64,000 nt of DNA from Amphiscolops sp. MND2022. Taxonomy: Eukaryota. Below are positions 13,213-57,236 of the stretch, in pieces. Each line of letters opens with the position of its first letter. Positions within the stretch are counted from its first letter, which is position 1. The DNA is taken from the NCBI GenBank assembly GCA_964187785.1, contig OZ076411.1, forward strand, positions 4,898,001-4,962,000, written 5' to 3'. The position numbers were made by a program, and so were the translations under genes. The notes beneath the pieces are model-generated. The model made no database searches. It was not told the DNA's origin and saw only the letters and a program-made list of their open reading frames with translations.

Positions 13213-16200
13213 CTAGCATTTCTTTACAGGAGTCGAATCTTTCCCTCCAGAACCTGACTCTTGCGAAGCACGTCGAGCTTCTCGTTTCTGCCTCAGCATC
13301 CGAGTAACATCACGGGAAGAAGAAGGAGAATACGACAGAGCAGCAAATAAAGGAGAAGCCTGAGGAGAAACAGCAGACTCCGTACTACTTCCTGCAACAG
13401 CAACAGCGGCAGACACACCAACTGACAATGGGGACACAGATGGATCCGCAACCACTCCAAGCTCCACCGACGTTTGAGGACTGGCACCAGCAACTGACAA
13501 TGTCGTAGAGGACGATAACCCAGTACCGGCACGACGACGCCACTCCGCAACTTGTCCTAAGTAATACTCATCAAACCGATCCCGCAAACCGCGATAAAGA
13601 TCTTGACGATTGAGTACATAAAGTGGCCGCCATGGAGCGAAACTCTCATTGTTCAAGAAATCCTTCCCCACAGGCAAATTGGCCTTTAACTCAAGCAAAC
13701 AGTCTTTCGTCAACAACTCGCCGGAATTGAACCCGGGAGCAGAAATAAACGACTGCACAGCGAAGATGGAAGACAACAAAATCTTCTTGGGGACCCGAAC
13801 ACCGCTCAAAGAGAACTCCACGTCTGGATAACGCACCTCACGAGGAATAGCAACCAAAGAAGCCAACTGAACCACATGCGATAAATTCCCGCGACAGCCA
13901 AAAGCCTCAGCCTGCTGCATGAACACGAAAGTGTCCGTGATGGTGCTCACAACACGCCGATTACGACGACGAAGATCCACCAGGAAGGACTTGAACTCAT
14001 TTCAAGCACCCTCAGCTACAACATTCGTCACTCGCCCACAATCTTGAAAGCAAGCCATCAGCCCCCGGAACAGCTCCACAGTATAATTCTCATCACCCAG
14101 AAGCAACATATCTGGCGCAAAACAACTCAGATTAGATGCCAATTGCGAGAGGACAAACGGACAACGTGCCAAAACTTTCAGAAATTCCATCAGTAGACCA
14201 TGGCAGTCTCGCAAGAAAGATCGTCGACGAGAGTCAGTAAACCCAGTCATAGCAATGCCGAAAATGCGCTCCCCACGGAAACAATCGACATAAGCCACAT
14301 TAGGCCAAGTATTCAGAGGTCGACCAATGTATTCGCTCCAAGAGTCAATGTCGGGGAGGTCAGACAGTTTCTTCACTTTGCTTAGGACACTCCAATAAAA
14401 GAAACAAAATTCGCCATAAGAGCGACAGCTGTAATCATAAATATCCTGCGCAGAAAGTTTCTGGAAATTAGCCTGGAAGCATGACACCAAAAGGTGCAGC
14501 AAGCTCAAACGGGGCAACACCTGGGCATCAGACAGGACCATTTGATTCAAATCAGCTGGCGTCCTACTGCGACTGGCAGGAACAACTGACGACTCTTTCA
14601 GAAAGGACTGGACATCACCCCAATTGCAGATCAATTCATCCAGTACTGTACACAAAGAAGCGAAGGGCACTACATTTCGCTGAACACAGCGGCGCAACTC
14701 ACACATGCCCATAAGCCAGGGCTGATGCGACGCCTTCCCCAAACGAAGAAGAAGATACTCAACGATTGAGAAAGGGTCCAGGGATCCAGAGCTCGGCCCA
14801 GAAGCCTCACGAACATGCTCTTTAAACATCTCCACAGAATATTCCATCATCAGAAGTGGCACAGGACGATTATCAGCTTTACACCAGTCAGCGAAGACAT
14901 TGAAAAGGGTTGACGAACACCCTCGCAGTGATACTGGCGTAGTCCCATCAGGAAGAACAGCTAGCAAACGGGACAAACAGGCAATCTCAGCATCACAAAT
15001 ACCAGGTCTCAGAGGCTCCCACAACACACAAACTTCATGCAAACTCCCAGCATTCCAACAGTGCACGAAGCATCGAAGCCCATCACAATCCTCACGGAAA
15101 CTGACACTAAAATGAGCGTCTTTACACCAGGATTGCACACGACGAATGATTCGGGGGTACAAAGTTTGAGTCAGGACGACAAGAGACTCTGTCTTACTCC
15201 AAGTCGAGTGAGCACAGTCGGAGTCAACCAGCATAGTGGTACGAAACTGATTCCACAACCTCCTGAGGAAACTGTGGGACCCACCGCTGCGTAGGAGCTC
15301 AAAGAGACCCCCTACAAGAGTGGAAGCTGGTATATTTGATGCCACGCCAACCAAGGCATCAACCTCATCCTTGACAAAAGGGTTCTTACAGCCGAGCACC
15401 ACAGCTGGAGTTTTCTCAATTTCGACACGCAACTCAGCCGATATAGAAGAGACTTCCACGGCATCAAAGCGTGATGTGTACACGTAATCTTCATGGTCGA
15501 GCCTGTATCGTCGGTCACGCAAGAAATGGGTCTTACTCCCGAAGTGACGCCAAATTTCCGGTTCTCCTTTGCTCAAGAACGAGATATCCTTGCGACAAAT
15601 AGCACAATTGAACCCATTCGGATTCTTATCAGATAGCTGGCTCACAAACAACCGAGGTATAGCATGCTCAGCCATCTCTTTCCGGAGTACATGACGTTCC
15701 GTTTGATGTTTCTTCTTTTTCAAGTATGAAGCATACAGCTTCCGTTTTGCATCGTCCTCAGCCCCAGCCTCAGATTGATCACGATGTAGGCGAATCCCTT
15801 TCGACTTCAGAAGACGCACCACCTCTTCAAGTTCTAAACACACAATTACACATCTATAAACGCAAAACAGAACCAATACTAACTAAAGACCAATAGAAAC
15901 AATCACACTACAAGATATAAACAAACCAGTCGGAAATACAACCAGAAACCATGGAGAATCAATCAGATGAGGAAACAACCAAACAGGCTACTTACGACGG
16001 GTCAAAGAACGATATTCCAGACGCGACTGACTCTTCTCCAAGCGAACAGGAGCTTGACCAAACGCCAACACCTGAGAGGAGGAGAGACACACAGCACCCG
16101 CCGGAACTTCAGATAAACCAGCTGGAACAGAAGCGCAAATACTGAGAGATGATTAATATTACAAACAATACAAGCCACTACCAATCAAAACCTGACAGCC

Positions 16201-17190
16201 AGAAACATATTGAGAATAGTAACCTTTCTCCCATTCATTGTGAAGAACAGAAGCCTCCAGTCCTTCTGTGGGCCGAGTATGCTGAGTACGCTCATGCACA
16301 GCTCTAGAGGAACTTGCACCAACGACGGAAGCCCCGTCATCATCCTGAGAAACACCAGGAACATCGAAGATGGCATCACTTGAAACATCGTCAGCAATTC
16401 GAACTCTACGCCCTAAAACATAACCAACAACTGAACATCAGGGAAAGAAAGGCAATAACCCAGTATCCCAATACCTCCCGACAATCAGCAAAACAAACGA
16501 ATGCCTACCTTCATGAAATACCTTCATTTACCCCAGTAGAAACATTGGATGACTCCTCATCACCAGACCCTGTGCCTCCACCAAGTGACATCTCACGAGC
16601 ACGCTTCGTCGGCTGCTCCTGCGGAACCGAGCCCAAACGCTTACTGCGCCGAAACACGGAAACAGGTGGCAGTTTGCCAGGGGAGAAATCCTCATCTTTG
16701 GAGTCATCAGAGAGACCTACAAAGAATATGAAAGTAGATGAATTGACGCGTCAGAATACTAGCTCTCATAACGTTAACTGGCCATTAACGGAATAGCTAA
16801 GGACTTACCAGGCTGGTCACGGAGGAAGTCTATATCGTGTCTGGCATCACTGCCAGCTGAATGGGTTGAACCACTCTCGCCTTCTCCGTCAGAATCCAGG
16901 GTATCATCAGAAGCGCTATCCCTCTCAGTAGCACTTTCTTCCTCTGAACCATCGTCTACCTCTCCGAATCCAGGAACACGGCGGGCACTTTGTAAGCCAG
17001 GACTGTCGCGATCTTCAGTCCCTTCAACTGTTTCCCCTTCTTTTGAACTCTCCACAATCACAAGACGCGACTCCGACTCATCGCCTTCAACTGACTCATC
17101 CCTCCTTCCCACCTCTGCTTCACTTTCGATAATGCCCACCTGGCGGGACTGCAGAAATCGAGCAGCATCCTCATCAGTAGACTCAGCCAT
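13213..17190 (-). pseudogene. Antisense spliced cargo gene of element 1 (zinc finger plus inactive hAT-transposase-like protein, ~1170 codons), with one in-frame TGA at 14002-14004
   Basis: Proposed exons 17190-16809, 16716-16522, 16412-16224, 16121-15996, 15833-13213; GT-AG introns of 92, 109, 102 and 162 bp, all phase 1; ORFs 14002-15876 and 13213-13980 are in the same frame; homologous to the element 2 gene. N-terminal exon boundaries are less certain. Confidence 0.75.
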
Positions 17191-29887: not shown

Positions 29888-30767
29888 CAGTGTGAGGTCT
29901 GGGTTCTGACAAAAAATTTTTTGCTACTGTAAATGTCGGGAACTGCCTGTTACAAAACGTGGACTAACTAACAATCAGGATGCATAATAAATTGAGTATG
30001 CTTCTTCTTAAATGCGGCACAGTACAAGTTTTACATTTTATTCACTTTTCGCAATTCGAACATGTTTCATTAAGCAGAAATGAAATGCCAGTAAATTTTT
30101 CGACTGTGATAAGTTTTAAACGAGTTTATGACAGTCTTCCTAACTGTTCACTTTCTTTACCTCAACATGAAAACCAGTACCTTTGCTGCTGAAAGGCTAA
30201 TATTAATATTTATCTCCCTTTCAATTTTGATTGATTTGCAGATTTGCAGAGTATTTGATATCTGTGAGCGTGAATATATTCTTTGGCAGTCGGGCAACAA
30301 CTGAAAATACAACATACGGGCTTGATTTGTCCGTGGAAAAAAATGCGAGATCAACATCTACGCCGGCATATACGTTTCGGTTTTCCCTGGATTTAAAAAC
30401 AAGCAAAAAAATTACAACCAGGAAAAACGAATTCTAGGGTGCGATGTACTAACTGTAAAAACAGATGGAGTAAAATTGCCTTTCACTCTCTTGGGAAAGC
30501 GCAACTTAAGAAAAATTACTGAAGATTTGAAAAACAAGAATTGGGTTGAAATAAAAATGGGTTAAAATGTAGCAACGCTTAGATGCCAAAATTTATCAAA
30601 ATTTATCAACGAACTATATGTAGCTTAGTTAGTCTGTTACCAAAAAATGCTCAATTTTATGATACAAAATTCTTTCAACATTTTAAAACCAAATGATTAA
30701 TCTTGAAAGATCTTGAAAGGGTTTTACAGGATCCTTGCAAAAATATTTTTTCTCAAAGTGTATTCAA

Positions 30768-37231: not shown

Positions 37232-39359
37232 TGTCACGACCCGCTCCCGGTCGGGACTTCACTTGCTGTGGAGGAATACCGCAATTCACGCGAGGAAAAG
37301 GACACGGCAGAGCTACACAACATTAAGTAAACTCTATTTAATGCCTTACCTTTTATCCAAACAGCAGCACGAATTAAGTTTAACGGAAGCGCAACGTAAA
37401 TTATTCAAAAATGATTTAGACAAAAAGAAAATTTCCGGTTTAATGATTTCACATGCAATCGTTTCATCACTTCCGGTTTCGACTGATGAAAATTCCATGC
37501 CAATCTAAATATTAAAAAAGAAACATCCTTAACACTGGGATCAATTTTTCTTTTCTCCACACTAAAATGAAAACGCTAAAACAATATTTAATTCCGTGAT
37601 CCCAACGGAACGCAGACGATCTAAAATGAAAGAACATACAAAGAGAATGGTGGAATTGTTTTCCAATGATTGATCAGTTGTGAATATCCACTTAAGAATG
37701 CAGTTAAGCAACTTAAGACAAAATTTACAATGCAATGACAACGTCACTAAGCTTGATTGAAAAGTAAATGTTTCTATTTTTACGGACCAATAGCGTCGCC
37801 TTTCACCATCCCTAGTTACCATAGCAACGCCAATTGAGAGAGAGAATAAGAATGAATTTGTTAACGCTGTCCGCTCCGTCTCCGCAAGCAAGCACTGCTC
37901 AACTATACCTAATCTTAATACGTACGGAGCGATTACGGAGCAAATTGTAATGCGAAGAAGCTATACCCAATCTTAATACGTAGGGAGCATTTACGGAGCG
38001 TTTACGGAGTGAATTGTAATAGGTGAAGTTATACCTAATGTTAATACATGTAAGACAAGCGTGGAAAATTCTAAAACACAGAAGCTATCCTAATACATTA
38101 GGATGTTCCTGAGGTTATGTAGAATTATTCCGAGATATTTAAATTATCATAAGGTTTTACTTTTTCCACCCGGATTTTCTCCGTTTTAGTGATCGATTAA
38201 AAGGTTCGTGTTGTTAATTAGGATAAAAGCGAATCCTTACAAAAGGGTGCTTCTTCCTATTCTGTAGAAGAATATTTTGTGTATTAATCACGTTGTAGAA
38301 ACGTTGCTTTCGTGCATATGCTATTTAATTGTTGCATTTGTCAGTGTTAACTAACTCAATTCATGTAAAGTTAGATAGATTATTGTTGGTTGTTTTCTGA
38401 TTTACAATAATCAGGTTTTTTAGTTCGTATTCATCACCTTTCCAGCATCATTTGTTCCTTCTCAAATATCTCAGTTTATCAATCCAAAATTCTCCCGAGA
38501 TATCTCTGTAACAAATTTTGCTTGTCATTTCTTTTATCGCAAGCTGAAAGTTTACCGCTCGTAAAGTGAATCATCGTTCATGCCCGCGTGCTTTCCGCGA
38601 TAAAGTTTCAACTAGACATTTGTTTTGCCGCCTTTTTCCGCAATCAAACCGGAAATGATGTTAATGAACAAAAATGATTTCAACAAGTACTCCGTAAGGG
38701 ATCCGTGACTAGGAATTTTAAATCATGAACAATTAATAAAAGGGTTGAAATAATAAGGATGATTAAGCATTTTTGTTGAACAAAACCGATTTTAAGGATT
38801 CCTAGGAATTTTTAGGTGAGGAACAAATGATGCTGTGAAAGTATATATACCTAAGGATTTGTAAATCTGTTTAATCTGTTTCCTAATCTACTCCGTTAAT
38901 ACTTCGTTTTGAAAACCATATTTCTTTGAAGAATTCAAATTTTCCAAAGAACAATCACTCTCTCGCTCTGTCTAAAAATGACTACTAGAAGCCAGAAGAG
39001 AAAAGCTATTGAAGAACTAGTTTCTACTGAAATGGAGACCCCAATACCTGAGACTAACCAAAACTTAAAGCCCGTAGTGGGGACGAGTAAATCTCCTAGA
39101 GTAATCACTGAAAATCTAGAGGAAATCAAGTCTTCACTGAGAAAAGAGATCATGTCTGATCTTACCAAAATCTTAGCTGAAAATCAAAAGGAGATGCTAA
39201 AACTAATAGCTGCTCCTGTTAAAAAACAGACCGTCGTAGCAACTACTGAAGAAACAGATTCTGAATCCGAAAATATCCCGGAAAATGCAACTTCGACACC
39301 AATCAAAAATAAAACCGCTGCGACTAATCGAAAAATCACCCCGATAAATAGTCGTAACA
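37232..39359 (+). repeat. 5' LTR of element 2 (2128 bp)
   Basis: Matches 50775-52902 with about 17 substitutions counted by eye. Confidence 0.97.
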
Positions 39360-40390
39360 TGGTGACAGGAGTCCTCAATGACTCAACGAACCTCGGAAAG
39401 AAGAAAACACGACCGCACCGCCCACAAAGTTTGCCACCCAACGAACGGCCTTCGACATCACGACTACTCTTCGCTCCCCAACCGGAAATACACCAGCCGC
39501 CCCACCTACCCTCAATGCCCAAAGCACTCACTGCATCATTGCCTGTATTCGATGGTAAGTCAGAAAAATTCGAACTTTTCGAGGACTTATTCCGGAACAA
39601 CATAAAAATGTACCCACATCTAACAGAAATCCAAAAAATCAACTACTTCCACTCGCTACTACGAGGCAATGCACTACAAGCATATTGCAACTTAGACGAT
39701 GCCAAAAAAGATAACTTAGAGGAGGTAATTACGGCGTTTAAACGGCGCTTCGGAGATTTTCAATCTTCTGCCAAAGCGAGATGCGAATGGGACTCGCTAC
39801 ATTTTGACCCAACCAAACAAAAACTACATGAATTTTTGGATACACTGCAAAAAACGGCTAAAGAAGCGTTCGGCTCTGAAGCACAAAAATTTATAGACAA
39901 GGCCATATACGCCAAATTGCCGGACCATGTCAAAAAGATTCTCAACCGTGCCTACCTCGAAGACAAGCCGTACAACGACATTGTCCTCCATCTCGAAAGA
40001 GAGATGCGCCTCAATGGCCTGGGCGCCCCAGACGAAACAATACTAGTTCCACTAAATACGGTCGACGTTGCTCCCCCGGAACCGAAAAAAGAGCCCACCC
40101 AACGAGGAAACTGCTTCCACTGTGGCAAATACGGCCACTACAAAGCCCAATGTAGAAAACTCCGCAAAGAACGCTACTACGAAACTAAAGCGCAAAACGG
40201 TGCTACCAATACAAATGACCCGCCCAAACCTAAATGTGACACATGTGGAAAACTTCACAAAACTGAAAACTGTTGGTACGGAGCTAATGCGGCAAATGAC
40301 CCCAGAAAGAAACGCCATGAATTTGCCATACCTACCAGCCAAATCAGTGAACAACCGATCCCCACTGTCGAAATTCAGCCAAAAAACTAA
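38978..40390 (+). CDS. gag: Gag of element 2 (470 aa); ATG lies inside the LTR
   Basis: Intact ORF; PVFDGKSEKFELFEDLF; knuckles CFHCGKYGHYKAQC and CDTCGKLHKTENC. Confidence 0.93.
   Translation: MTTRSQKRKAIEELVSTEMETPIPETNQNLKPVVGTSKSPRVITENLEEIKSSLRKEIMSDLTKILAENQKEMLKLIAAPVKKQTVVATTEETDSESENIPENATSTPIKNKTAATNRKITPINSRNMVTGVLNDSTNLGKKKTRPHRPQSLPPNERPSTSRLLFAPQPEIHQPPHLPSMPKALTASLPVFDGKSEKFELFEDLFRNNIKMYPHLTEIQKINYFHSLLRGNALQAYCNLDDAKKDNLEEVITAFKRRFGDFQSSAKARCEWDSLHFDPTKQKLHEFLDTLQKTAKEAFGSEAQKFIDKAIYAKLPDHVKKILNRAYLEDKPYNDIVLHLEREMRLNGLGAPDETILVPLNTVDVAPPEPKKEPTQRGNCFHCGKYGHYKAQCRKLRKERYYETKAQNGATNTNDPPKPKCDTCGKLHKTENCWYGANAANDPRKKRHEFAIPTSQISEQPIPTVEIQPKN
39360..39372 (+). promoter_or_regulatory. 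Primer-binding site TGGTGACAGGAGT
   Basis: Directly after the LTR; identical to element 1. Confidence 0.8.
40381..40387 (+). promoter_or_regulatory. -1 frameshift slippery heptamer A AAA AAC
   Basis: Directly before the gag TAA; the -1 frame is open into the pol ORF. Confidence 0.8.
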
Positions 40391-43300
40391 AAACGCCGCG
40401 CCTCCGCTTCGGGGAAACGGTAGACGCAAGGGCGTACACAATAGAAGACCCCCCAAATCGCTACGAAGAAGACTTCATGACCGAATGCAACGAAGAACCG
40501 ATACAGGATTGGCAACGTCGTTGGAACGTAGGCATGATACTTAGACACAATGCACGACACCCAGAAGACCCAACACCACTACCCCAATGGATAACAGAAT
40601 CACCCGATAACTACGCGACACTAAAAAGACCCTTACCAGAATCAAAGACCGAACGCATTTACATATATGATAGAGACTATAGATGTGATCCCTGGGATGA
40701 ACCAACCATCTATGACACAAACAAGCTCTCTTTTAAGATCCAAGTTTCAAATCCTCAAGCTCAAGTCACCGAGAGTACAACCCTACCAACACCTTTGTCA
40801 CCAATCCTAAAAAAGACAACACAGTCCTCGCCAACACCCGTCACCACCACGTCCACACCAATAGATGCAGAGAATATTATCTGCATTGAGGATAAAACAA
40901 TATGGTCACAACAAGCAAAAGAACAACGCGGAGTAGCCGATCAAACAGTACCACCCCCCACAACAGCATCCGAATTGCCAAATCAGAACAACAATCATGA
41001 AGACGACGAAGTAACGGAATGCCCACAACAACTGCCATACGATCTCAACATCATAAAAGAATTCATACAACATGATAAAGATGACGACTACATTCCGTTA
41101 ATGTCGGCAATTACCCTCAAAAAGAAGAAAAGAATGCTCTTTATTCCTCTCGACTTTGAAAACACTAGAATTGATGCATTAGTCGACTCGGGAGCCTACA
41201 TCAACGTCATCAGTGAAAGAGACGCATACAAGATACAAACTGATGCCAACGCAACCATAATCGCGAAGGCACCTCCACCCCCTTTCAAGATACAATATGC
41301 CAACACAGAACTCGAAAAAGCCCGTACAACATACACAATGCAGTTCAAAATCGGGGACTACGCGTTCGAAGAAACTTTCATCATCATGACCAAAACATCT
41401 TACACAATCATTGGCCTGGCATTCCTCCGGAAGCATTCCGCAATCCTAGACACTGCACAAGGAACAATAGACTTTCCTAAAATACAAATCACTCTAGCCC
41501 TAAAAGATGAAAGACAAAAGTGCAACCCCAAACCCATCACTATCAAGACGGAAGAAAAACACACCATACCAGCCCAAGCCACGCGGATCATCCACGCTTC
41601 CATCACCACAAACAATGACCACGCAATAACTGGGACAGTCCAACCTTTACCACAATTCGACGAAAATGCAAAACTCATAGTAGCCCCAGCAATAACAACA
41701 GCCCGAGACAAACGAGTTGCGATAAAAATAGCGAACACCACAGACTTCCCCTATACAGTAACGCCACATACGAAACTAGCAGAATTACAAATACTGAAAC
41801 CTGAAGAAACGAAATTGATACGAGCAGTAGATATAGCAGCCCTCAATCTACTCACCGAACACGACGATGTTGTTGCGTACGTTAACGCACTGATGCAAGT
41901 TGATTCGTCAGAACAAACAGAAGAGAAATTCTGGTTCCCAACTCCCGAAAATCCCGGAGATGAATCGGAACACACACCCATCCAACAACGCATTCTACGA
42001 GAACTACGCGAACTACAAAAATTAGAAGAACTGGACCCCAAACAAGACGAAAAATCCAGAACACAATTCCTCTCGCTATTCAAATGGAATGATTCACTAA
42101 CAACGGGAGAAGATCGTGAAAACCTAGAGTCCACCCTACTCGAATTCAATGACATTTTTGCACGTCACCGACTGGACATCGGAATGAACAACCAGTTCAA
42201 GGTATGCCTAACTCCCAAAAACGACAAACCGGTATATACACAGAGTCTCCCTGTACCCATCAACCTCAAGGACGACCTCACAGTAGAATTGGCACTGATG
42301 CACAAATACGGGATCATCACAACCCTCCCATTCTCGAAATATGCCAGCCCCATCTTCGCGCAACGCAAACCCAACGGCAAACTACGGCTCCTAGTAGACT
42401 TACGGAAGATCAACGCCCTCATCTCAGATGACTACATAAACAACAACCACCCCATCAGCACCCTCTCAGATGCCGCACAACACCTAGCGGGGAAGCAGCT
42501 GTTCTGCAAACTAGATTGCTCACAAGCCTATCACTGCCTCCAAATGGCAGATCAAAGGTCAGTAGAACTCCTTGCATTTAATTTTGCCAGTAGAACGTTT
42601 GCCTATCGTAGGCTAGCCCAAGGCCTTAGTAGAGCCTTGTCAGCCTTTTCGAGCTTCATGCGGGAATACCTCGACACCGTCATCAAAGCAGACCAGTGTG
42701 CCCAATATGTAGACGACATTGGAATCGCTGCCAACACAACGGAACAACTCATTAAGAACATCAGAGCAGTCTTCAAATGCATCCGCAAGGCAGGACTAAA
42801 ACTCACAATTGAAAAATGCCACTTTGGTGTCACCCAAATCGAATTCCTGGGAAGAACCATCACACCCCACGGAGTAGCACCGCAAGACCACAAAATCACC
42901 AGTTTCTTGTCAAAAATCAGATTTCCCCGGTCAAAGAAACAAGTCCAGAAATACATTGGATTCATCAACTACTACAGAAACTACATACCAAGATTGTCCG
43001 AAAAAATGATTGGAATGTACGAACTCCTAAAAGCAGATGCCAAAATCACCATATCTGAAGAACTAGTCGACAACTTCAAAGCGATTAACGCGAGCCTAGC
43101 GGAGGCCTGTGGACTTGCACTCAGACAGCCAATTGCAGGAAAACAATATGTACTGATGACGGATGCTAGCTTCCGAGCATCCGGATATGCGCTCATGATC
43201 GAAGAAAACGACGACAAAAAACTACTCTCCAAAAGAAAAACCTTCGCCCCTGTAGCTTTCGGATCACGCGTGTTCTCGCCGTCACAACTGAAGATGTCGA

Positions 43301-45596
43301 TATACTGTAAAGAATTCCTCGCAATATATCATGCATTCCTTGAATATAATCACATTCTCTGGGAAACAACACGACCTACACTAGTACTGACAGACAACAG
43401 ATCAGTAACGAGATTTTTCCAGACGAAAACAACGCCACCCGCTCTCTGGAATGCCTGCGACTACGTACTCCAGTTCAAATTCCGCATCATGCACGTAGCT
43501 GGCGCGCAAAATACAGCAGCCGACTTCCTGTCTCGCCTCGAATTAACTCCAAAAGAGAGAATCCAACTCAAATTGCGAGACGACATCATAACTGCACCTA
43601 TCGAGGTTAACCTACAGTCTACAGATGTTGCGGACGAAGAACAACTCTTTTTCCTGCCAGACGAAGAAGAGGAATCAGAACAAGAAATTTTCGCCAGGAA
43701 AGCCCTTAGCAAACAACGAGCAATAGACGAAAAGGAACAACAAAACTTGACAACCGAAGTCACAGAAACAGTGCACATACCTCTCAACTCAGCAGTATAC
43801 GCCTTTGGAGCCATCAAGGAAAACGCCCGCATCCGCAACGAACAGGACGCGGACCCGATATTGAAAGCATTGAAACTACGGCTGCTTCACGAAGAATACG
43901 ACAAACACCTTCTCAAGACCGAACCCAGAGGACGAAACCTACTACGTCACGAAGAAAGAATAATAGTCAAAGACGGAGTACTCATGCGTAAATACTACGG
44001 AGAAGATGGCACAGTAACACATCACCAAATCCTCATACCGAAACATATAGTACCAGAACTCCTATCGACGCTACATGGAAAAATGAACAAACACCAAGGA
44101 ATAACCAAAATGATTCAGGAAAGCCGAGCAAAGTACTACTATCCGGGACTAGCGCGGAAAATTAGAGCCTGGGTATTCAACTGTCCAGATTGCATAGCCA
44201 ACAAACGAATCGACACGCGCCAAATACGTCCTAAAATGCTGAGTAATACAGAATTCACATTCGGACCAGAAGATTGTCTAGAAGTCGATATTCTACCCAA
44301 TCTACCCTCATCAAACGGCTACAAACACATCATAACCATGATGGACGTTTTCTCCCGTTATTTGTTCGCATACCCCACTCAAGACATGACTGCCAGAACA
44401 GTCGGACGATGCATAATTGACGTTATGACACGTCACTGTTATCTGCCTACAGTGATTCTGACTGATAAAGGATCACAATTCCGATCAGATGTCGTGAACC
44501 AAATAGCACAAACACTGGACATACGGATTAGCCACGCATCGACGAAACATGCACAAACGATTGGAATACTAGAGAGAACGCACGCATCTCTAAAGACGTC
44601 CCTTAAAATATCAACGGGAGAACGCCGTTCGATGTGGCACAAATACGTACAAATTGCAGTAATGAACTACAACACTAGTTACCACGAAAGCCTAGGGTGC
44701 GAACCAACAACCGTATTTCACGGACGCATTCCGTACAACATTCTGGATATCAACCTGGGACTCAAACCAGAATGGAAAAAGACGCTAACGAAGACCTTGC
44801 GGACGAATTACAAAAGCAAATCGCTGAAATCCACCAGTCAGCCAAGGACAACCTCATGCAATCATATTTGAAGTATAAGCGATATTATGATAAGAAAGCG
44901 ACAGCAACGCCATTGAAAATCAATGACTATTGCTACGTCCTGAACCCGAAGGCTGATAACCAGTTAATGAAATTCGCTTTCAAAGATTGCATTTGGACAG
45001 GACCATATATAGTGATCAAAGTCCTTTCCAATAACAATTACGTCGTAAGACGGACAGGAACAAGATATACGCAAACCCTCCATAGAATTCGCCTAAGGCT
45101 ATATGCGCCCAATCAGAGAGTACCTGACGTAACAGTCAAAGTGGAAGATCAGCTTCCAGATCCCGAGGTTAAAACAACCCATGATGATTGGTACGCGCAA
45201 GCTTGGGAAACCGAATTCGGAGAAGTTCTGTTCGGCAACTCATCGGAAAGAGAAAATGAAGAAGCTAACATCACAGAGCTGCCAGCGGAAGACGCAAATA
45301 CAACGGAGCAAGAAACAGCTATAACAACTGCAGACGAAACTTCAACAGCAGAACAAATTCCCTCCGGAAATGAAACGTCGCCCAACCTAGATGTCAGCGA
45401 TAACCCTTTCATAATGACCCCACCGCCTATGGAAAGCCCTCCCATACCGCCTACACTTCCGCCTATAGTTGTCGGATACAACCCGAGGAAAGCAGGAAGA
45501 TATAACTTACGTCCTAATCCTAAACCTAATGCGCACCCCGACTTTAGGATGCTGGACGCAATCACTGCGGAAGAGAATTCTCAACCTCAAAACTGA
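40381..45596 (+). CDS. pol: Pol of element 2 (PR-RT-RH-IN), with one frameshift in an A5 run at 44776-44780
   Basis: DSGA, YVDD, TDAS, HHCC, integrase core and WTGPY; ORFs 40477-44871 and 44697-45596 join if one A is added. Confidence 0.93.
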
Positions 45597-45755
45597 ATAA
45601 AAACGATCAGAGAACCAAACCGAACCGGAATGGCAACGTCAATTTTTCTTTTCATTAGAATAATCAACTAACTAAAGCAACATAAAATAAAGGATCTTGG
45701 CCAAGAAAAGAAGAAAAACAAGACTAAGTTCACCAGTTCACATCAATAACAAAGT

Positions 45756-48700
45756 TCACAACTTCTTTATCCTATGCCGAACATCAGGATCATCATCTTT
45801 TGACGATTTTTTCTTGGTTTTTGACACCACAAAACCACTTGCAGCCTCTTTATTGCTGCTCGTTGTTGACCCTGACGTAGACCGCTGACCTCCCACCTTG
45901 TTCTTCACAGAACCCGAAGCATCAGTGCCGACAGCAATAGCACTTGTTGACATCTGTTGAGCACGAGCAAGCCGGTTCGCTTTATTCTTCTCCACATACT
46001 GAATCTCATATGATTTCCGCTGTGCCAACAAAAAGGCATCATACAAACGACTATATTGGGAGATGAAATCTGACACACTCCCCCCACAAAAATCGGCCCA
46101 CAAATCAAAATTAGGAGCAACATAGAATACGCCAGCATTACTGATAGCATCCTGCACAGCTTCCATAGTAGGCTCAGTGAAGAAAGACTGGTGCTCATAC
46201 CCCGGACTCAACACGTAGCTCTGAACTAAATGTAGACATTCTTGGAACTTGGCTATACTCAACTTGCTACCGCTAAGGTCAAAATTCACAGCCGGATAAA
46301 CTGCGCGAGGTCTTCGAGTCACCAATACACATAGCTTCAAAACGCGGCAGACGCGATGTCGAGCTAAGAAACTAAAATCTCGTAGCAGCCAATCGACCAT
46401 GTTGGGAATTTCACTGGCCACTCCCATGGATCGTTCGTGCTGATTTCGCTTCTCCACCACATAACTGCTAAATTCTTCAACTGCAGCCTTGGAATCATCT
46501 GAAGACAGACAACCACATGACTCTAGAACACGGCATAGGTCCGGAAACAACTGGAAAACAAGCTGACCATCACCCTCCAGCAATAGCTCAGGACAAAAGC
46601 TATAAATACCCCGTGACACACGCGATGAGGCACTTGGACCTTTCAAGATAATACTGACTAGCTGATCCATAAACTCTTGGCATCGAATACGGAAAGTCGG
46701 AAACTCACTAGTTTTGCCCGCGAGCAACTCCCGGCCAAAATCGCAGTTTGCCAAAAACACATCGTCAGCAATGGAAGGAAAAGCAGCGACCTTCTCTTCG
46801 TCCATGAACCCGTCCCAATCGTTCAGACTAGGCAGACTCTCTGTAGCCCGGGTTTTCAGCAAAAGGCAGTAGATAAAATCACACAGCTCACCATAGCCGT
46901 GAAAGGCGTAGTCTTCACGCCCCTGATGAAGCTTCGTGAAATTGATGTGAACTGAAACAACAGGAAACGATCAACAATGAAATTAAGCTCAATTCGCGAC
47001 ATCAATCCGGCAACAGAAAGAACCAGTCAAACAAGCATCCACAAACTACAAAACCGATCAACCAGGCCATACTCACATGTATCTAACACAAATCGTAACA
47101 GCCCGAAACGATAAGGTGTCATATTGTCAGCGATTATGTGCCAGTCTGTCCCCTTCATCTACAACCAACCATCATCTACACGTTACAAATTTACTGAAGA
47201 GAAAAAAAAGAGGGGGGAAAAAGCACACAAATCGAGACCACATAAAAACAATAAATTTGACTAACACTGTCAGCTTTTCCTTTCGCCCCCGGGTGCCCAG
47301 TGCAACGAATGAAAGGACGTATGCAAGACCACAGCTCAATAAATTCGGTCAACAGCTGACGATAATCCATAAAATCAACGGACCCTTGCCGGATACATTT
47401 GCGTAGTACCACCTTGCCCTCTGTCCAGGCCTCATACAAAGCACCTTTCAGACGCTGCAACAGATAGTCCACTAACGTTATCACGTTCACCATCCCGAAA
47501 ATGTCCTGATCTGCCTGCTGCACACATCGCAGAAACACCTCCTCATCAAACTTCTCATATATGACGAAACGGCGAGCATCAGAACGGTCATTCTCTAACA
47601 CACGAAGCAATGACGGACTCCCCCCGAGAATCGCAATGGGCAACAAAGTTGAACCCAAACTGCACACAATACGGGACAAGGGCACTAACTCTGGAAGTGG
47701 CATGGCCTGATCCAACGATTCACATCCGATACAAATCTTCATCAAATGCTTGTCATTCCAGTATAACACGTAGCATCGCTCCACATTGTTCTCTTTCTCG
47801 TACTGCAATCCATACGCACGAAAGCCAGAAACACTACTCAGCATAAGGCGCAACACCCGCGGAGCCAAGCCTTGGCACAGAAACGCCTAAAACGGATAAC
47901 ACTCAAAACGTCCCATACCTTTACCTACTTAATACAAAAAAGAGGAAGCAATAAAAACGGCCACATACGAGTATTATACAGAGTGCCAAAAACTACAAAA
48001 CAAACAAACACATACTCACCACAGTCTCGGAACGACTCCAGTTGAGATTAAACTGTGGTCCCCTCTCCTTCGGTAGTGTCAACAAGAAGTGGCTCCAAAG
48101 ACGGCGCAAAAGCACAAAATCGCCACCACTACGCAAAAGCTCACAGACACAACCCACCAGTGTCATGAAAGGGACTTTCGACTCCACGCGGGAGTGCTTC
48201 GGCAGCAAATCCTCAGGAAAAGGATAGCCTTCACTCAAATCCTCAAATGCTTTCGAACGGTATTCGGCCAGCTGACTGTCAGACAACTCCATAGGCTCCA
48301 TGAGCCTATTGAGAACAGGCAGGCCCAAGTGCACGCGATACGTTACGTCTTTAAACCAGTGGCCATCAGATTGAAAATGTCGCGCAAACTCTCCAGAGCC
48401 TTGTGCTCTCATGCCCACGTCCCGTTTACACACACGACAGTGAAAATGTGTGCCTTTGCCATTCTTCGCGCCACTAACGAAATGAGGAAAAGCAGGATGG
48501 AGGCTCAACATTCGTCGATGCAACACATTCCGACTGCTGTATTTCTTTCCTTTGCCACGTGCACTCAGACGACTGCCCACCCTATCAGCAAACTCGTCAA
48601 GACCTATGAAAACACACAAACCAAAGTTTACTATGATTACAACGAACACGGACCACTACCGATACGAAATACAACACAAACACCTAGCTACAGACAAAAC

Positions 48701-49548
48701 ACCAAATAACCCACCAGTCTGTAAATGACTCTCCACATGATCGGCGACCTGACGACCAACTTCACGAACAACGTCCGGACTCAAACCAGTGCCAAGGATA
48801 TGTGCCACCTCCGGATCGTCTAGACCTACACAATCAAGAAATACAGTACAACTGAACAGTACTATACGTCAACAAAAAAAAACACAGGAGAAACAAAGAA
48901 ACAAGCACAACCAACAAGAACTTACTAGTCCAACCTCCAGGAGCGGGTGTCAGTGGAGGAGGAGGCAACGGCTTCTTAGCACGCTTGGGCAAAGTCCCAA
49001 AACCCACCTTCTTGCGAGAACCACTCGTTTTGGGAGCTAACAAAATACGCATATCACACTCCGAAAACTCGACGAAAACAAAATCCAACACGCTACTAAT
49101 ACAATAAATTCAAATCTACTAACTCGTTTCTTCCCCGGGCGGCGGATCGGTCTCACCTCCTTGAGACTCACTGTCACTGTCTTCGGCCTGCACAGCGCGA
49201 AAACGCACAGGTAACGCCTGAACTCCCGAAGCCTCCCCGACAGCAGAAGGAACCACAGGAGAATTAGGAGGAGCAGCAGCTGAAGACACATTGGGCGGAA
49301 CAGTACTCGAGAGACCAACAAGAGCCTCATGCACGGAAAAGATTGGCGCAGTAGAAAGTATGGTTGAAACCGAGGGCAAAAGGCTTGATGCAGACGGAAC
49401 AACCTCGGAAACTGCACCAGAAGAAATAACAGCCACTGATGAACTGACAGGTTGAGTTACTGAAAAATCAAGATCTGGTTCGACGCGTCAGAGTTGCGGG
49501 TAGGACTCCAAAGGCTGATCACCAAAAACAAATAGTCCAATTACCCAT
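45756..49548 (-). CDS. Antisense 8-exon cargo gene of element 2 (1014 aa; zinc finger plus inactive hAT-transposase-like protein)
   Basis: Exons 49548-49545, 49459-49124, 49036-48926, 48825-48715, 48603-48020, 47886-47266, 47158-47077, 46951-45756; seven GT-AG introns of 85-133 bp; phases match; 3045 nt with no internal stop; core junctions restore alignment to the element 1 protein. Confidence 0.85.
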
Positions 49549-49870
49549 GGAAGTCAGAAAAGATTTTTTACCAACCTGAAACAGAATGAACAAATGCCGG
49601 TTCAGGATGGACGTCATCATCAGTGTAATTAAACACTGTCTCGTTTCCACTAAGGAAGCCGCCGGCAGGTACAGTAGGAGGCACACTTTCTCCATCCATT
49701 TAAGAAATTACCACGTAAAGAATCTTCAGAACAGTCTGAAACAAAGAAAATACATTACCCAAAATTAATCCAAATACACCATCGTTGGAAGCTCATAGTT
49801 TCCAAAAGGACGAAAAATGGTTCAAATTAGTTTGAGATCATAAAGAGGAAGAAAGAGTCAGTTCAAGTCT

Positions 49871-49963
49871 GTGACGTCACACGGAACATCACCGGGAAGA
49901 AATTAGTGACGTCACGACGAAGTTCAAACCTTAACATTTTTATTCCTATGGTTCAGCCAATCA
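49871..49963. promoter_or_regulatory. Candidate internal bidirectional promoter (two GTGACGTCAC CRE palindromes and a CCAAT box)
   Basis: GTGACGTCAC at 49871-49880 and 49906-49915, AGCCAATCA at 49955-49963, between the divergent ATGs at 49548 and 50135. Confidence 0.5.
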
Positions 49964-50134
49964 CAGCGCAGATGGAAGCAAAACGCTTTCCGAGGATAAA
50001 ACGAACCGAAATGAGAAGAAAATTAACAGCCAATGAGAACGCAGGAAAGTCACGAACGGAAGAAAGTTAACCTCTCCACTTGCCGCATTCTAAACGTAAA
50101 GATAAGACAGCTTGTAAAAATCAGAAAACTTAAA

Positions 50135-50869
50135 ATGAATAACTACGACTTAGTTATCGATATCTCCTCCGACGAAGAAGAACGGGGTAGCAACGTAAGA
50201 CAGAGCACCCCAATCAAAATACTCCCGCTTAATGTGATAACAACACTGGATCTTTCTGAAGCCTCCTTAGAAGCTACAAAAGGCAGCGCAGAAGAGATGA
50301 TGGACTCTATCAATAGTCTAAATTTATCCGGCATCTCAGCGTCTACATTTGAGACTATCGGTTCACCGAGAAAAATAAACTTCGGCACTACAAGCCCTGG
50401 CGAAGCTTTCATAGTGGAAGGGCATAGTACTGAAACGCCTGAAGAAAGCTACTTTGAAGAGCCGGATACTCCCCGTCAACTACCGCCGCTGCAGCCCGCC
50501 CCAGTATTACGAGACGTGTCTAACAAAGAGCTTCAGTACAATGGACCGCCTGCAAAAGCCGACAAACTCGACGACTTGATGGAGCCAGCAGTAGAAGAAA
50601 TCGAAAACGCCTATGGCATAGATCTACAAAGCAGCCGAGAGAACAGCCCGTTGTGCGGACGGGGAACGCGCTATACTTCTACAAAACTGGCAAGAGCACG
50701 AAAACAACCAGTACTGATCACCAGAGAGATTCCCCACTGCCCCAGACCGTGGTCAACAGGCTATAGAGGCGCCCTGTCACGACCCGCTCCCGGTCGGGAC
50801 TTCACTTGCTGTGGAGGAATACCGCAATTCACGCGAGGAAAAGGACACGGCAGAGCTACACAACATTAA
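50135..50869 (+). CDS. Sense ORF3 of element 2 (244 aa, acidic and disordered), reading through the PPT 95 bp into the 3' LTR
   Basis: Open frame 50033-50869; N-terminal LVIDISSDEEE and QSTP motifs resemble element 1 ORF3. Confidence 0.7.
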   Translation: MNNYDLVIDISSDEEERGSNVRQSTPIKILPLNVITTLDLSEASLEATKGSAEEMMDSINSLNLSGISASTFETIGSPRKINFGTTSPGEAFIVEGHSTETPEESYFEEPDTPRQLPPLQPAPVLRDVSNKELQYNGPPAKADKLDDLMEPAVEEIENAYGIDLQSSRENSPLCGRGTRYTSTKLARARKQPVLITREIPHCPRPWSTGYRGALSRPAPGRDFTCCGGIPQFTRGKGHGRATQH

Positions 50870-52902
50870 GTAAACTCTATTTAATGCCTTACCTTTTATC
50901 CAAACAGCAGCACGAATTAAGTTTAACGGAAGCGCAACGTAAATTATTCAAAAATGATTTAGACAAAAAGAAAATTTCCGGTTTAATGATTTCACATGCA
51001 ATCGTTTCATCACTTCCGGTTTCGACTGATGAAAATTCCATGCCAATCTAAATATTAAAAAGGAAACATCCTTAACACTGGGATCAATTTTTCTTTTCTC
51101 CACACTAAAATGGAAACGCTAAAACAATATTTAATTCCGTGATCCCAACGGAACGCATACGATCTAAAATGAAAGAACATACAAAGAGAATGGTGGAATT
51201 GTTTTCCAATGATTGATCAGTTGTGAATATCCACTTAAGAATGCAGTTAAGCAACTTAAGAGAATATTTACAACGCAATGACAACGTCACTAAGCTTGAT
51301 TGAAAAGTAAATGTTTCTATTTTTACGGACCAATAGCGTCGCCTTTCACCATCCCTAGTTACCATAGCAACGCCAATTGAGAGAGAGAATAAGAATGAAT
51401 TTGTTAACGCTGTCCGCTCCGTCTCCGCAAGCAAGCACTGCTCAACTATACCTAATCTTAATACGTACGGAGCGATTACGGAGCAAATTGTAATGCGAAG
51501 AAGCTATACCCAATCTTAATACGTAGGGAGCATTTACGGAGCGTTTACGGAGTGAATTGTAATAGGTGAAGTTATACCTAATGTTAATACATGTAAGACA
51601 AGCGTGGAAAATTCTAAAACACAGAAGCTATCCAAATACATTAGGATGTTCCTGAGGTCATGTAGAATTATTCCGAGATATTTAAATTATCATAAGGTTT
51701 TTCTTTTTCCACCCGGATTTTCTCCGTTTTAGTGATCGATTAAAAGGTTCGTGCTGTTAATTAGGATAAAAGCGAATCCTTACAAAAGGGTGCTTCTTCC
51801 TATTCTGTAGAAGAATATTTTGTGTATTAATCACGTTGTAGAAACGTTGTTTTCGTGCATATGCTATTTAATTGTTGCATTTGTCAGTGTTAACTAACTC
51901 AATTCATGTAAAGTTAGATAGATTATTGTTGGTTGTTTTCTGATTTACAATAATCAGGTTTTTTAGTTCGTATTCATCACCTTTCCAGCATCATTTGTTC
52001 CTTCTCAAATATCTCAGTTTTTCAATCCAAAATTCGCCCGAGATATCTCTGTAACAAATTTCGCTTGTCATTTCTTTTATCGCAAGCTGAAAGTTTACCG
52101 CTCGTAAAGTGAATCATCGTTCATGCCCGCGTGCTTTCCGCGATAAAGTTTCAACTAGACATTTGTTTTGCCGCCTTTTTCCGCGATCAAACCGGAAATG
52201 ATGTTAATGAACAAAAATGATTTCAACAAGTACTCCGTAAGGGATCCGTGACTAGGAATTTTAAATCATGAACAATTAATAAAAGGGTTGAAATAATAAG
52301 GATGATTAAGCATTTTTGTTGAACAAAACCGATTTTAAGGATTCCTAGGAATTTTTAGGTGAGGAACAAATGATGCTGTGAAAGTATATATACCTAAGGA
52401 TTTGTAAATCTGTTTGATCTGTTTCCTAATCTACTCCGTTAATACTTCGTTTTGAAAACCATATTTCTTTGAAGAATTCAAATTTTCCAAAGAACAATCA
52501 CTCTCTCGCTCTGTCTAAAAATGACTACTAGAAGCCAGAAGAGAAAAGCTATTGAAGAACTAGTTTCTACTGAAATGGAGACCCCAATACCTGAGACTAA
52601 CCAAAACTTAAATCCCGTAGTGGGGACGAGTAAATCTCCTAGAGTAATCACTGAAAATCTAGAGGAAATCAAGTCTTCACTGAGAAAAGAGATCATGTCT
52701 GATCTTACCAAAATCTTAGCTGAAAATCAAAAGGAGATGCTAAAACTAATAGCTGCTCCTGTTAAAAAACAGACCGTCGTAGCAACTACTGAAGAAACAG
52801 ATTCTGAATCCGAAAATATCCCGGAAAATGCAACTTCGACACCAATCAAAAATAAAACCGCTGCGACTAATCGAAAAATCACCCCGATAAATAGTCGTAA
52901 CA
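50775..52902 (+). repeat. 3' LTR of element 2
   Basis: Matches 37232-39359; followed by TSD GGGGC. Confidence 0.97.
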
Positions 52903-55097: not shown

Positions 55098-57236
55098 TGT
55101 CACGACCCGCACCCGGTCGTCAGTTTTCCAAAGTTTACAAGAAGCATTGGACACGGCTAGAGCAAGTATGCTTAAAAAATAGAACTTCAGTCTAATTCTA
55201 CCAACAGTGCAGCTAAACATTTCGTAGACAACTTTTCTGAATTAAAAAACCTACGTAAGCACCACTGAATATTTTGGAAATGATTTTGATCTAAATAAAA
55301 CATCCTGTCTAACATTTTGTGCGTAATCATTTTTACTTCCGGTTTATCTCCTGCGATTCACATACTGATCTAAGTAGAAAAACTAAGACGATATTCCGTA
55401 CAGAAAATTAGTTCTTCTTTTCCACCCTGAAAAGATGAAAAGAAACATTAAGGATAAAATTTACCACTGTAATTTCAGCGGAATGCAAACAATCTAAAAT
55501 GAAAAACATACAGAATATTGTAGTGGATTGTTTCCCAACATTAGAGTAGTTGTCAAAAGTCATTTCAAATACAGTCAAGTAAGTGAAGAGAAAAATTACA
55601 ACGTTATGGCAACATCACTCAGCGGAGTAAGTAACTGGTGTTTCTATTTTTACGGACCAAGAGCGTCGCTCCCTTAGTTGCGTTATTTGCGCTCAATCAA
55701 ATAAGAGTGATTTTCTACTGACGTCACTAGCTGAGTGAATAAGGGTGAAAGCCTAAGCTCTCCGCTTTCTCTCCGTCGAAATTGGCTTAGCTATACCTAA
55801 TCTTAATACGTACGGAGACGTTACGGAGCAATTTGAATAATTGTAGCAGTGAGAAGGCATTTTAAGCTAGTTTTGAAAGGAATATCTCCAATAAACGATG
55901 CATTAGGAGATCTTCAGGAATAGAGTTTTACACGACAAAGCTGTACTGTAAGGGAGGGTTGTGAAACTGTGTTGATATTTTTAATGTTTTGGATTTGTAC
56001 TGAATACTAATCATGGAATCACGTTCACCTTACGTAACATGCGAATTTTCATAATGAATCAAACTTGAACTCTTCACAATAACTATGGTTTACAGTTTAA
56101 CGGACGATCCCAAAATTTACGTAAGAGCGACGTCATTTATATACTTGTTTCACTCCCGAACAAATGTGATTCCATGTCCGGTGCTCTTGCTGAATCTCAA
56201 AATAAAATTATGATTGTCGCACACAGGGTGACAAAATTCCTTTGTAACTATTCGTCGTTTGATGTTTTATACCTATTTATTACGAAGTGAATTCTTGTCG
56301 GCCGTAAGGCTTCCGTTTGATTTTCAGTTTTGTTGCTGAGGTAAATAGTTGTAATACATAAATTATGTCAATTTTGTCAAACTAAATGCGTTTGTAACTT
56401 CTTGTAGACACTAAAACATGTAACATTTAGCATCATTTGTTCCCTTTCACTCATCTCAGTATTTCCTTCACCCTTGAACAATTTCATTCCGTCTCAGTTA
56501 GCTCGTCATTTTCGCGCGTCACACTGTATGTTATCTCCAGATTTCCCAACTTGAAAAATGCCTAATTGATCACGCCGGCGTGCCCCCGTTAATGAAATTA
56601 TTAAACGGACCTTCATATTGCCGCCATTTCAAGATTAAACAGGAAATGTACAAGCATGAACAAAAACAATTTCAACAGGTGCAACGGAATACCAACGATA
56701 CAAGGAATTTCGATACCTGTTTTTCCGAAGCTGGACTGAAATGATTTGGGCAACTAGGAAGTTTCAGTGATTAAACCCAATTTTTACGATACCTAGGATT
56801 TTTTTCGGGAGGAACAATGATGCTAAGAAGGTTTATAATTATTTAATATATATTAAAAAATGACAACTAGAATTCAAGAACGGAAAGCTGTAGCTGAGCT
56901 AGATTCTGGAGAATTCGGAGCCTCTACGACAGAGAAAAATCAAACTGAAAGCTGCGTAGCCGTTCCGAGTACATCCCCCAAAATTCAATCTGAGAAGCTT
57001 GACGAGATAATAACGTCACTAAGAAAAGGGATCATGTCTGATCTCTCCAAGATCACAGCTGAAAATTGAAAGAAGTTGAAACTAATAGCCTCTGTCATTC
57101 AAAAACCTGTAACCATCCAAAATCGAGATAACTCTGATTCTGAATCAGAAAACGTTCTTCCTAATACAACATCAACTCCAATAAAAACAAAAGCGACTAC
57201 TTCTAACTAAAACTATACCGGTGAATAGTCGTAACA
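55098..57236 (+). mobile_element. Solo LTR (2139 bp) of a family related to element 2
   Basis: TGTCACGACCCGC...AGTCGTAACA; TSD CAGAG (55093-55097, 57237-57241); decayed gag N-terminus MTTRIQERKAVAEL at 56860. Confidence 0.92.

Follow-up and report, generated by a model that had tools for sequence, protein, structure and literature searches.

A multi-intron antisense gene in a Ty3/Gypsy retrotransposon suggests capture of a dead hAT transposase

The carrier element and its antisense gene

The window analysed here is a stretch of 64,000 nucleotides from Amphiscolops sp. MND2022 (contig OZ076411.1), and all coordinates are positions of this whole window. Within it we have identified a Ty3/Gypsy retrotransposon with long terminal repeats (LTRs), termed element 2, which carries on its minus strand, between the pol stop (45596) and the 3′ LTR (50775), a protein-coding gene with seven introns. 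A second, related LTR element on the plus strand, element 1 (4612–19914), carries a homologous antisense gene. Comparison with sister loci from the same assembly (1.07 Gb, 1929 contigs), together with structure prediction, suggests that a dead hAT transposase was captured by the retrotransposon and is now its helper protein. Element 2 is made up as follows.

37232..52902, plus strand: element 2, a young Ty3/Gypsy LTR retrotransposon with TG...CA ends and the 5-bp target-site duplication GGGGC
37232..39359, plus strand: 5′ LTR, 2128 bp, with the primer-binding-site-like TGGTGACAGGAGTCCT after it
38930..40390, plus strand: gag frame (DUF1759 and Retrotrans_gag by Pfam)
40351..45596, plus strand: pol, with protease, reverse transcriptase (RT), RNase H and integrase (Pfam order)
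50775..52902, plus strand: 3′ LTR

An earlier, sequence-only reading of this DNA had placed the gene inside a retrotransposon, and this is borne out by the paired 2128-bp LTRs (17 mismatches) and the 5-bp duplication. The domain order, gag and then protease, RT, RNase H and integrase, is that of Ty3/Gypsy, and the best PDB sequence matches include Ty3 Gag-Pol (E 7e-25). An integrase frameshift near 44.78 kb is private to the window copy and absent in 7/7 sisters examined. Element 1 has TG...CA ends, LTRs of 1876 and 1882 bp with 12 mismatches, the duplication AAGTT, and a gag and a pol whose RT, RNase H and integrase come in the order typical of Ty3/Gypsy (a protease was detected in element 2); its gag-pol is laid out as three overlapping frames (6142–8736, 8561–9826 and 9787–12921). 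A site starting with TGG lies 3′ of the 5′ LTR in both elements; no clean purine run precedes the 3′ LTR.

The antisense gene, in the corrected model explained below, reads as follows on the minus strand.

49576..49699, minus strand: exon 1, coding part, 124 nt, probable start ATG at 49699
49460..49575, minus strand: intron 1, 116 nt (corrected)
49124..49459, minus strand: exon 2, 336 nt, Ser/Pro-rich with an acidic patch
49037..49123, minus strand: intron 2, 87 nt, phase 1
48926..49036, minus strand: exon 3, 111 nt, basic clusters RKK and KRAKK, possibly acting like a nuclear localisation signal
48826..48925, minus strand: intron 3, 100 nt, phase 1
48715..48825, minus strand: exon 4, 111 nt
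48604..48714, minus strand: intron 4, 111 nt, phase 1, at the same position in element 1, before xL[DE]E
48020..48603, minus strand: exon 5, 584 nt, C-x2-C-x16-H-x5-H finger (C283, C286, H303 and H309 at 48439–48359) and helical domain
47887..48019, minus strand: intron 5, 133 nt, phase 0, after WSxxETx, probably present in very distant lineages and absent in element 1's clade
47266..47886, minus strand: exon 6, 621 nt, RNase-H-like strands, strand 4 without the catalytic Asp
47159..47265, minus strand: intron 6, 107 nt, phase 0, absent in element 1's clade
47077..47158, minus strand: exon 7, 82 nt
46952..47076, minus strand: intron 7, 125 nt, phase 1, absent in element 1's clade
45756..46951, minus strand: exon 8, 1196 nt, last part of the hAT-like core, then a Ser/Lys-rich tail that includes a basic cluster

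Removal of the seven GT-AG introns first proposed (85, 87, 100, 111, 133, 107 and 125 nt) from 49548–45756 on the minus strand does yield 3045 nt, in which 1014 codons run uninterrupted to the terminal stop. A splice-solution search of this region returned four stop-free solutions, among which the proposed one uses the most consensus-like sites. The register of the junction ETV/AFLCQGLAPR (the slash marks the junction) against element 1 was confirmed, and the LDT-F-HINFTKL junction could be read from the sequence. In a chance test under the plain GT-AG rule, on which its outcome rests, the real region is readable without stops with 7 introns of 70–170 nt, while dinucleotide shuffles need at least 13 (median 15; 39/40 threadable) and 8 control stretches of the window need 12–18; a stricter splice-site filter rejected the real region as well and is hence uninformative. 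A chance open reading frame (ORF) is rejected.

The start of the gene had to be revised. The 4-nt first exon originally drawn (ATGG/GTAATT at 49548) is probably wrong, since its ATG is lost in 7/27 sister copies. In its place, a first coding exon of 124 nt in the same phase probably runs from the ATG at 49699 to the donor CAG/GTTGGT at 49575; across the 27 copies its donor is kept in 27/27, its ATG and its length each in 26/27, and 24/27 are stop-free, the donor being identical in 6/6 distant loci as well. With ATG losses of this order, the 4-nt exon is rejected as the main start. That the start at 49548 is partly kept across copies is explained by its falling within a conserved part of intron 1, and it may be used occasionally. 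In the corrected model intron 1 measures 116 nt and the coding sequence 3165 nt, in 8 coding exons that encode 1054 amino acids (aa) with no internal stop.

Conservation in sister copies and the history of the introns

For comparison, 27 sister loci were taken from 48 matches in the same genome, and the antisense gene is present in all 27. With the corrected intron 1, GT is found at 186/189 donors and AG at 183/189 acceptors, so that the splice-site conservation by which the gene model could be checked is indeed seen. In the 4 oldest copies the splice dinucleotides are kept in 53/56 cases versus 232/496 for other intronic GT or AG, and in 9 middle-aged copies in 122/126 versus 872/1116. Introns 4–7 lie at identical position and phase, with canonical ends, in 4/4 distant loci (L028 and L041–L043), whose last exons share 53–74% protein identity; intron lengths drift among sister copies. 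Among indels common to at least two copies the frame is kept in 10/15 in exons versus 9/43 in introns, and among private exon indels in 25/107, as expected for decay after insertion. The gene is thus intact in the window copy, as first described, and less so in the family: only 8/26 fully aligned sisters are stop-free under the original model, and most others carry frameshifts or stops.

The antisense gene is under strong purifying selection. The ratio of nonsynonymous to synonymous divergence (dN/dS) is 0.07–0.44 for all 27 copies and 0.07–0.28 for the 17 copies with dS above 0.09, versus 1.0–3.9 in the shifted frames of the same 17; all pairs share one reference, the window copy, and are therefore non-independent. 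Transcription and splicing of the gene in vivo are predicted, and we hold them to be highly probable.

Exon 8 has 104 scored matches genome-wide, and the examined loci that extend past the antisense stop adjoin pol-end sequence. These multi-copy, pol-adjoining loci rule out a domesticated host hAT gene in the sense of a fixed, low-copy gene outside mobile elements. One further locus (L044, G000:C6:17861800-17866400) holds the last exon alone, fused to LTR-like sequence, which is an internal deletion.

How introns persist in an element that passes through RNA had been ascribed to orientation. On the genomic-RNA strand all 7 introns of element 2 read CT..AC, and the donor-like motif GT[AGT][AG]GT occurs from pol to the 3′ LTR 0 times in sense versus 21 times in antisense, a difference that strand composition explains in part; the introns can thus pass through reverse transcription. 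This portion of the argument stands. Antisense introns are not immune to loss, however, for the three 3′ introns are absent from the clade of element 1, where a tree favours loss over gain. Nor is the gene simply host-like, as the earlier reading had it, since its protein family shows the fold of a hAT DNA transposase with the catalytic residues missing. The sense strand of the internal region of element 2 holds 7 AATAAA hexamers, one of them at the pol stop, which full-length RNA must pass; the one at the pol stop lies by a conserved block (45597–45659) between the convergent stops.

The homologous gene of element 1 is the following.

13213..17190, minus strand: antisense gene of element 1, 5 exons, 4 phase-1 introns, intron-free core

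Its 4 introns are all in phase 1, as are introns 1–4 of element 2; intron 4 precedes the xL[DE]E motif in both genes, and the last exon of element 1's gene (2621 nt) is free of introns. An in-frame stop at 14002–14004 is private to the window copy, being absent in 12/12 sisters. At 16509–16531 the same copy has a private 13-nt insertion by the donor of intron 2, which makes available a new GT, at 16521, that would leave the exon length of 195 nt unchanged.

The last-exon tree (118 rows, a quick tree) separates a clade whose database frames start near the intron-7 junction from a clade with continuous cores, and the database matches for the intron-bearing clade are all exon-sized pieces. In distant database proteins the homology ends after WSxxETx and continues with V-S, V-G or V-R, as expected from read-through into GTRAG, so that intron 5 is probably present in distant lineages too. 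A 34-row tree of the WSxxETx region, midpoint-rooted with no outgroup and with the intron deduced from protein rather than DNA in 9/13 intron-bearing rows, puts 21 intron-free rows on one side of a branch with support 96. Three intron-bearing rows join this intron-free side (support 95), and forcing them to the element-2 side is rejected by the approximately unbiased test (p-AU 0.008, for a group named after the tree was seen). Under midpoint rooting, element 1's clade is nested among intron-bearing lineages, which implies one loss, and it is quite probable that its three 3′ introns were lost rather than gained. Reverse transcription of a spliced mRNA is expected to leave just such a pattern, with losses confined to the 3′ introns.

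Fold and catalytic residues of the antisense protein

The N-terminal ~230 residues of the protein are rich in Ser, Pro and acidic residues and contain basic clusters; they are followed by the finger, a core of ~700 residues and a Ser/Lys-rich tail. The four zinc ligands of the C-x2-C-x16-H-x5-H finger are invariant in 17/17 aligned proteins. The spliced element-2 protein shares 25–29% identity with element-1-type proteins over 725–835 aa (E 1e-60 to 1e-80); the protein relatives checked are all ENA entries. No membrane segment is present, the highest 19-residue hydropathy being 1.63 on the Kyte-Doolittle scale, below membrane level. An env-like ORF3 is rejected for the lack of such an anchor and for the antisense orientation.

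The structure was predicted for an intron-free relative, P0001 (AlphaFold with 35 sequences; pLDDT 74, pTM 0.65). With this model all 10 Foldseek matches under E 0.001 are Hermes transposase (E 6e-5 to 9e-4), and VIA-align gives Z 12.2–13.7 for six Hermes entries, with an unrelated helicase fold next at Z 6.6. The best VIA-align match (Z 13.7, root-mean-square deviation (rmsd) 5.5) aligns 396 residues, P0001 208–706 on Hermes 135–609, and in the model the RNase-H-like core is broken by a helical insertion domain, as in hAT transposases. A structure search of a viral library returned, as its sole match under E 0.001, a hAT-domain protein, and the ESM Atlas places P0001 with Dimer_Tnp_hAT, DUF4371 and FAM200/GTF2IRD2 clusters at 0.89–0.94.

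Active hATs require D180, D248, R318, W319 and E572 in Hermes numbering, according to the accessible part of PMC6027215. In the family alignments no conserved acidic residue stands at the three places equivalent to D180, D248 and E572, as assigned from the strands of the P0001 model and host hAT motifs and not by residue-level superposition. At the end of strand 1 stands R, Q, K or E, and at that of strand 4 mostly xG; 14/15 rows covering strand 4 have no Asp on it, and one element-1-type row has a D adjoining the site. The ERxFS motif occurs in none of 27 rows, the last helix being without the SSERSFS of host hATs. CxxH after strand 4, a hAT feature seen as CLAH in host hATs, is absent in the aligned region of 17/17 proteins and in element-2-type rows. 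The invariant W376 of P0001 may correspond to R318/W319 of Hermes. The host genome also has ordinary hAT transposase sequences (L046–L049) with CLAH and TRWNS, and with SSERSFS in L046–L048.

A still-active transposase that moves the element as DNA, or a hAT that was passively nested in it, could call on the whole hAT fold and on the Glu with which strand 1 often ends in the element-2 subclade. Activity is contradicted by the missing strand-4 Asp and ERxFS just described, host hATs having SSERSFS and CLAH; the 5-bp duplications and TG...CA ends are the work of an integrase, and dN/dS near 0.1 across saturated distances would not be expected of a passive insert. Both versions are largely refuted on these grounds and retain a very small probability.

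Several observations weigh against the capture of a hAT transposase as a DNA-binding helper. The fold is taken from P0001, a relative ~25% identical, and not from the spliced element-2 protein itself, whose exon 8 draws hAT-type clusters in the ESM Atlas weakly, with a score below the recognition line. The match to Hermes is remote (10–14% identity, rmsd above 5 Å). None of 35 family members matches a hAT Pfam model, including Dimer_Tnp_hAT (PF05699), at E 0.1; a PDB sequence search with the family alignment gave one chance match only, and hhalign against one host hAT fragment gave no match. For the finger, the ZBED1 BED finger is the first Foldseek match but a weak one (E 1.2), and matrin/U1-type RNA-binding fingers score alike. 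TGACG, the only target motif tried, is not enriched (1.4–2.0 per kb inside the elements versus 1.6–1.8 outside), so no binding-site array was found, and expression of the gene is a prediction from sequence.

Other searches were empty or of little weight. Exon 8 of element 2 has no Pfam match, the exon-5 model compared with 48,161 chains gave no Z of 5 or more, and the one host hAT sequence compared has no sequence likeness to the antisense protein. A search of the host genome for DUF4371 gave nothing, its control giving no signal either. A search with exon 8 for long annotated spliced relatives (696–2000 aa) scored none, which is weak evidence, and a metagenome scan with the element-1-type alignment gave 368 pattern matches, none confirmed. 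An inserted hAT transposon would be flanked by terminal inverted repeats and an 8-bp duplication; inverted repeats near the gene were absent in a search that covered lengths of at least 40 nt.

On the predicted model, then, the antisense protein is built like a hAT transposase and is not a member of the active family. Its hAT ancestry is very probable in our judgement.

Possible roles and likeness to known systems

The exon structure and its conservation, the purifying selection, the hAT fold (on the relative P0001), the lack of a catalytic triad and the integrase-mobilised carrier are computed results, and from them a course of events can be proposed. An ancestral Ty3/Gypsy element would have taken up a hAT transposase gene with its introns, either from a hAT transposon or from a domesticated copy, and the captured gene would have been placed between pol and the 3′ LTR in reverse orientation. 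As the genomic RNA reads the introns as CT..AC, every fresh insertion would inherit them; normal splicing would act on a distinct antisense mRNA that starts at an internal promoter. The protein would have lost DDE catalysis but retained its zinc finger and hAT scaffold, along with basic localisation signals and an acidic, Ser-rich disordered N-terminus. It may have become a nuclear DNA-binding accessory factor that binds the DNA of the element itself, boosting its expression or protecting it against silencing. Nuclear DNA binding is likely; that the factor helps the element's own expression is the most likely single role, tentatively favoured at somewhat below an even chance.

Perhaps the dead transposase helps integration instead: by binding the cDNA ends, the integrase or the target chromatin it would steer entry into the nucleus or decide where the element inserts. 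Gripping transposon ends and target DNA is what the hAT scaffold evolved for, and basic clusters are present in the protein. For plant antisense ORFs, a part in bringing the pre-integration complex into the nucleus has been proposed (PMC7264820). However, the protein is encoded apart from Gag-Pol, with no obvious route into the particle, and its acidic disordered N-terminus (D+E 22% in element 1) is better suited to a role in transcription; we hold integration help to be improbable.

A decoy for counter-defence would associate in mixed complexes with hAT transposases or with host regulators derived from hATs, or compete for their sites, and so blunt a host pathway in trans. The genome contains many hAT sequences (at least 150 Dimer_Tnp_hAT matches), and dead enzymes often are dominant negatives. 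Purifying selection is strong and rapid change is not seen, however, which fits an arms race less well, and the one host hAT fragment compared shows no detectable sequence likeness, which leaves the decoy a little less probable still than help in integration.

Three further features of element 2 are listed here.

45597..45659, strand not assigned: conserved non-coding block lying between the stop of pol and that of the antisense gene, with a 12-nt core (45617–45628) identical in 6/6 distant loci
49700..50134, strand not assigned: putative divergent internal promoter with two TGACGTCA (49872 and 49907) and two ATTGG/CCAAT boxes
50135..50869, plus strand: second accessory ORF, 244 aa, from ATG 50135 into the 3′ LTR, no Pfam match

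Intron 1 of element 2 is 86–92% identical in 6 distant loci and is more conserved than the rest of the gene in the 4 most distant loci, where exons are 51–79% and other introns 50–73% identical. It has CTGACGCGTC at the branch-point position and a possible hairpin, with an interrupted stem of 10 bp, around an invariant 17-mer with the palindrome TGATCA; 92% of cells are paired, and covariation is not above shuffles (83/500). The first intron of element 1 (16717–16808) is strongly conserved too and has a stem-loop with TGGCCA. The first introns of both elements have GACGCGTCAGA in common and lie ~1.2 kb before the 3′ LTR. One may guess at a dimerisation or packaging signal, or at a protein-binding site.

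These features invite the thought of an RNA-level factor whose finger binds element RNA, for example the conserved intron-1 element as read on the genomic strand, for export or packaging, or of a self-limiting repressor in which protein and antisense RNA damp the element. Matrin/U1-type fingers (TUT4, TUT1 and U2 snRNP subunits) are among the weak structural matches, and intron 1, more conserved than the exons, could form its hairpin. Yet the remainder of the protein is a DNA-transposase fold, the hairpin covariation is no better than in shuffles, and a purely RNA role cannot account for selection on the protein. An RNA-level or repressor role seems about as improbable as the decoy.

The second ORF lies head-to-head with the antisense gene and has dN/dS of 0.11–0.19 in 10/16 copies with computable dS. 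In the comparison with one copy its dS is 0.86 where that of the antisense gene is 0.015, which argues that it recombines as a separate module between subfamilies. Its counterpart in element 1 (17492–17938, plus strand) shows dN/dS of 0.13 versus its one distant relative and 0.7–0.8 versus two near-identical ones.

If the favoured role as a helper of expression is extended to all of these parts, a whole Ty3/Gypsy clade would have domesticated a hAT, captured backwards with its introns, as a dead sequence-specific chromatin factor. The antisense gene and the head-to-head second accessory gene would then form a regulatory cassette serving the element, and intron 1 would also be a cis-acting signal of the genomic RNA, its hairpin loop with the self-complementary hexamer resembling kissing-loop dimerisation sites. 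The 3′ introns of one clade would have been lost via reverse transcription of the gene's own spliced mRNA. As a joint whole this picture is unlikely, and it is offered as a conjecture.

The rest of the window holds other remnants. A direct repeat pair (24237–25577 and 28558–29888; 1.34 kb, 96% identical, 4.3 kb apart) possibly represents the LTRs of a small or non-autonomous element, a frame of 432 aa at 20947–22245 (minus strand) with gag-like DUF1759 is a fragment of another LTR element, and pieces at 55476–57236 that are 68–75% identical to the element 2 LTR are probably an old solo LTR of a relative. A tandem array of an 11-nt unit (CATGGTTCATG-like, ~20 copies) occupies 1908–2149. Rfam at gathering score gave 0 matches across the window.

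Antisense ORFs 3′ of pol (aORF-3R) are known in plant and fungal Ty3/Gypsy elements, among them gene23 of maize Grande, those of rice RIRE2, the TRP28 ORFs of Retand and that of fungal Boty; as far as the available parts of these papers go, the Grande ORF has its own internal promoter and a nuclear protein, and the origin and function of the aORFs are described as unknown, without likeness to other transposons (PMC7264820, PMC11963269). The gene of element 2 resembles them in position, orientation, presence in most copies and conservation. Unlike them, the antisense genes of this family have 4–7 conserved introns and a hAT-transposase fold; introns are unmentioned in the available text of the Retand paper. 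Antisense accessory ORFs of Gypsy elements are hence already known, and what is new is the hAT origin and the multi-intron structure: a mainly open-access literature search, limited to the accessible text of its sources, found no antisense coding gene of an LTR retrotransposon described as having many introns and a hAT origin.

With such an origin, an antisense accessory ORF would receive a concrete source: a class I element would have taken in a class II transposase, which was disabled and has been kept by strong selection across saturated distances. An element passing through RNA can carry a full spliceosomal gene, and annotation based on ORFs fragments such spliced antisense genes and misses them. 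The many dated copies with 4 or 7 introns form a natural series for intron loss by reverse transcription.

The protein shares with Hermes and with dead or domesticated hAT proteins (FAM200, GTF2IRD2 and the ZBED family) an N-terminal C2H2 finger, a helical domain and an RNase-H-like core with a large helical insertion. It differs from hAT proteins in having neither the DDE triad nor a hAT Pfam match, and in travelling within a multi-copy retrotransposon rather than between inverted repeats or at a fixed host locus.

HBZ of HTLV-1 is a small bZIP protein, unlike the element-2 protein. Both are encoded by an antisense accessory gene 3′ of pol, as HBZ is cited in the accessible part of PMC11963269. 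Captured accessory genes have been described in rotifer and planarian elements (PMC5408684, PMC6431247, in part). The LTR retrotransposons of bdelloid rotifers have enzyme-derived ORF3s (GDSL esterase, DEDDy exonuclease) with no clear departure from neutrality; they are likewise captured accessory genes 3′ of pol, and the available portion of that paper (PMC5408684) mentions neither introns nor a transposase. In Ty1/Copia elements of Arabidopsis, multi-exon antisense transcripts that are non-coding and start in the 3′ LTR are reported in the part of 10.1101/2024.04.02.587720 that could be consulted. Splicing on the antisense strand inside an LTR retrotransposon, predicted here from sequence, is common to both cases, whereas the gene of element 2 codes for a protein of 1054 aa on which purifying selection acts, and its start seems to be internal.

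VANC of VANDAL transposons is an accessory protein from a captured gene that relieves the silencing of its own family, according to the accessible sections of PMC13547354 and PMC6719617. Unlike the element-2 protein, VANC is related to MAIN, belongs to a plant DNA transposon and has known arrays of its target motif. Being likewise a transposon accessory protein from a captured gene, it may by analogy serve as the functional model for a hAT-derived helper of the element's own expression, and the antisense protein of element 2 is a candidate for a transposon-encoded regulator or anti-silencing factor beyond plant VANC.

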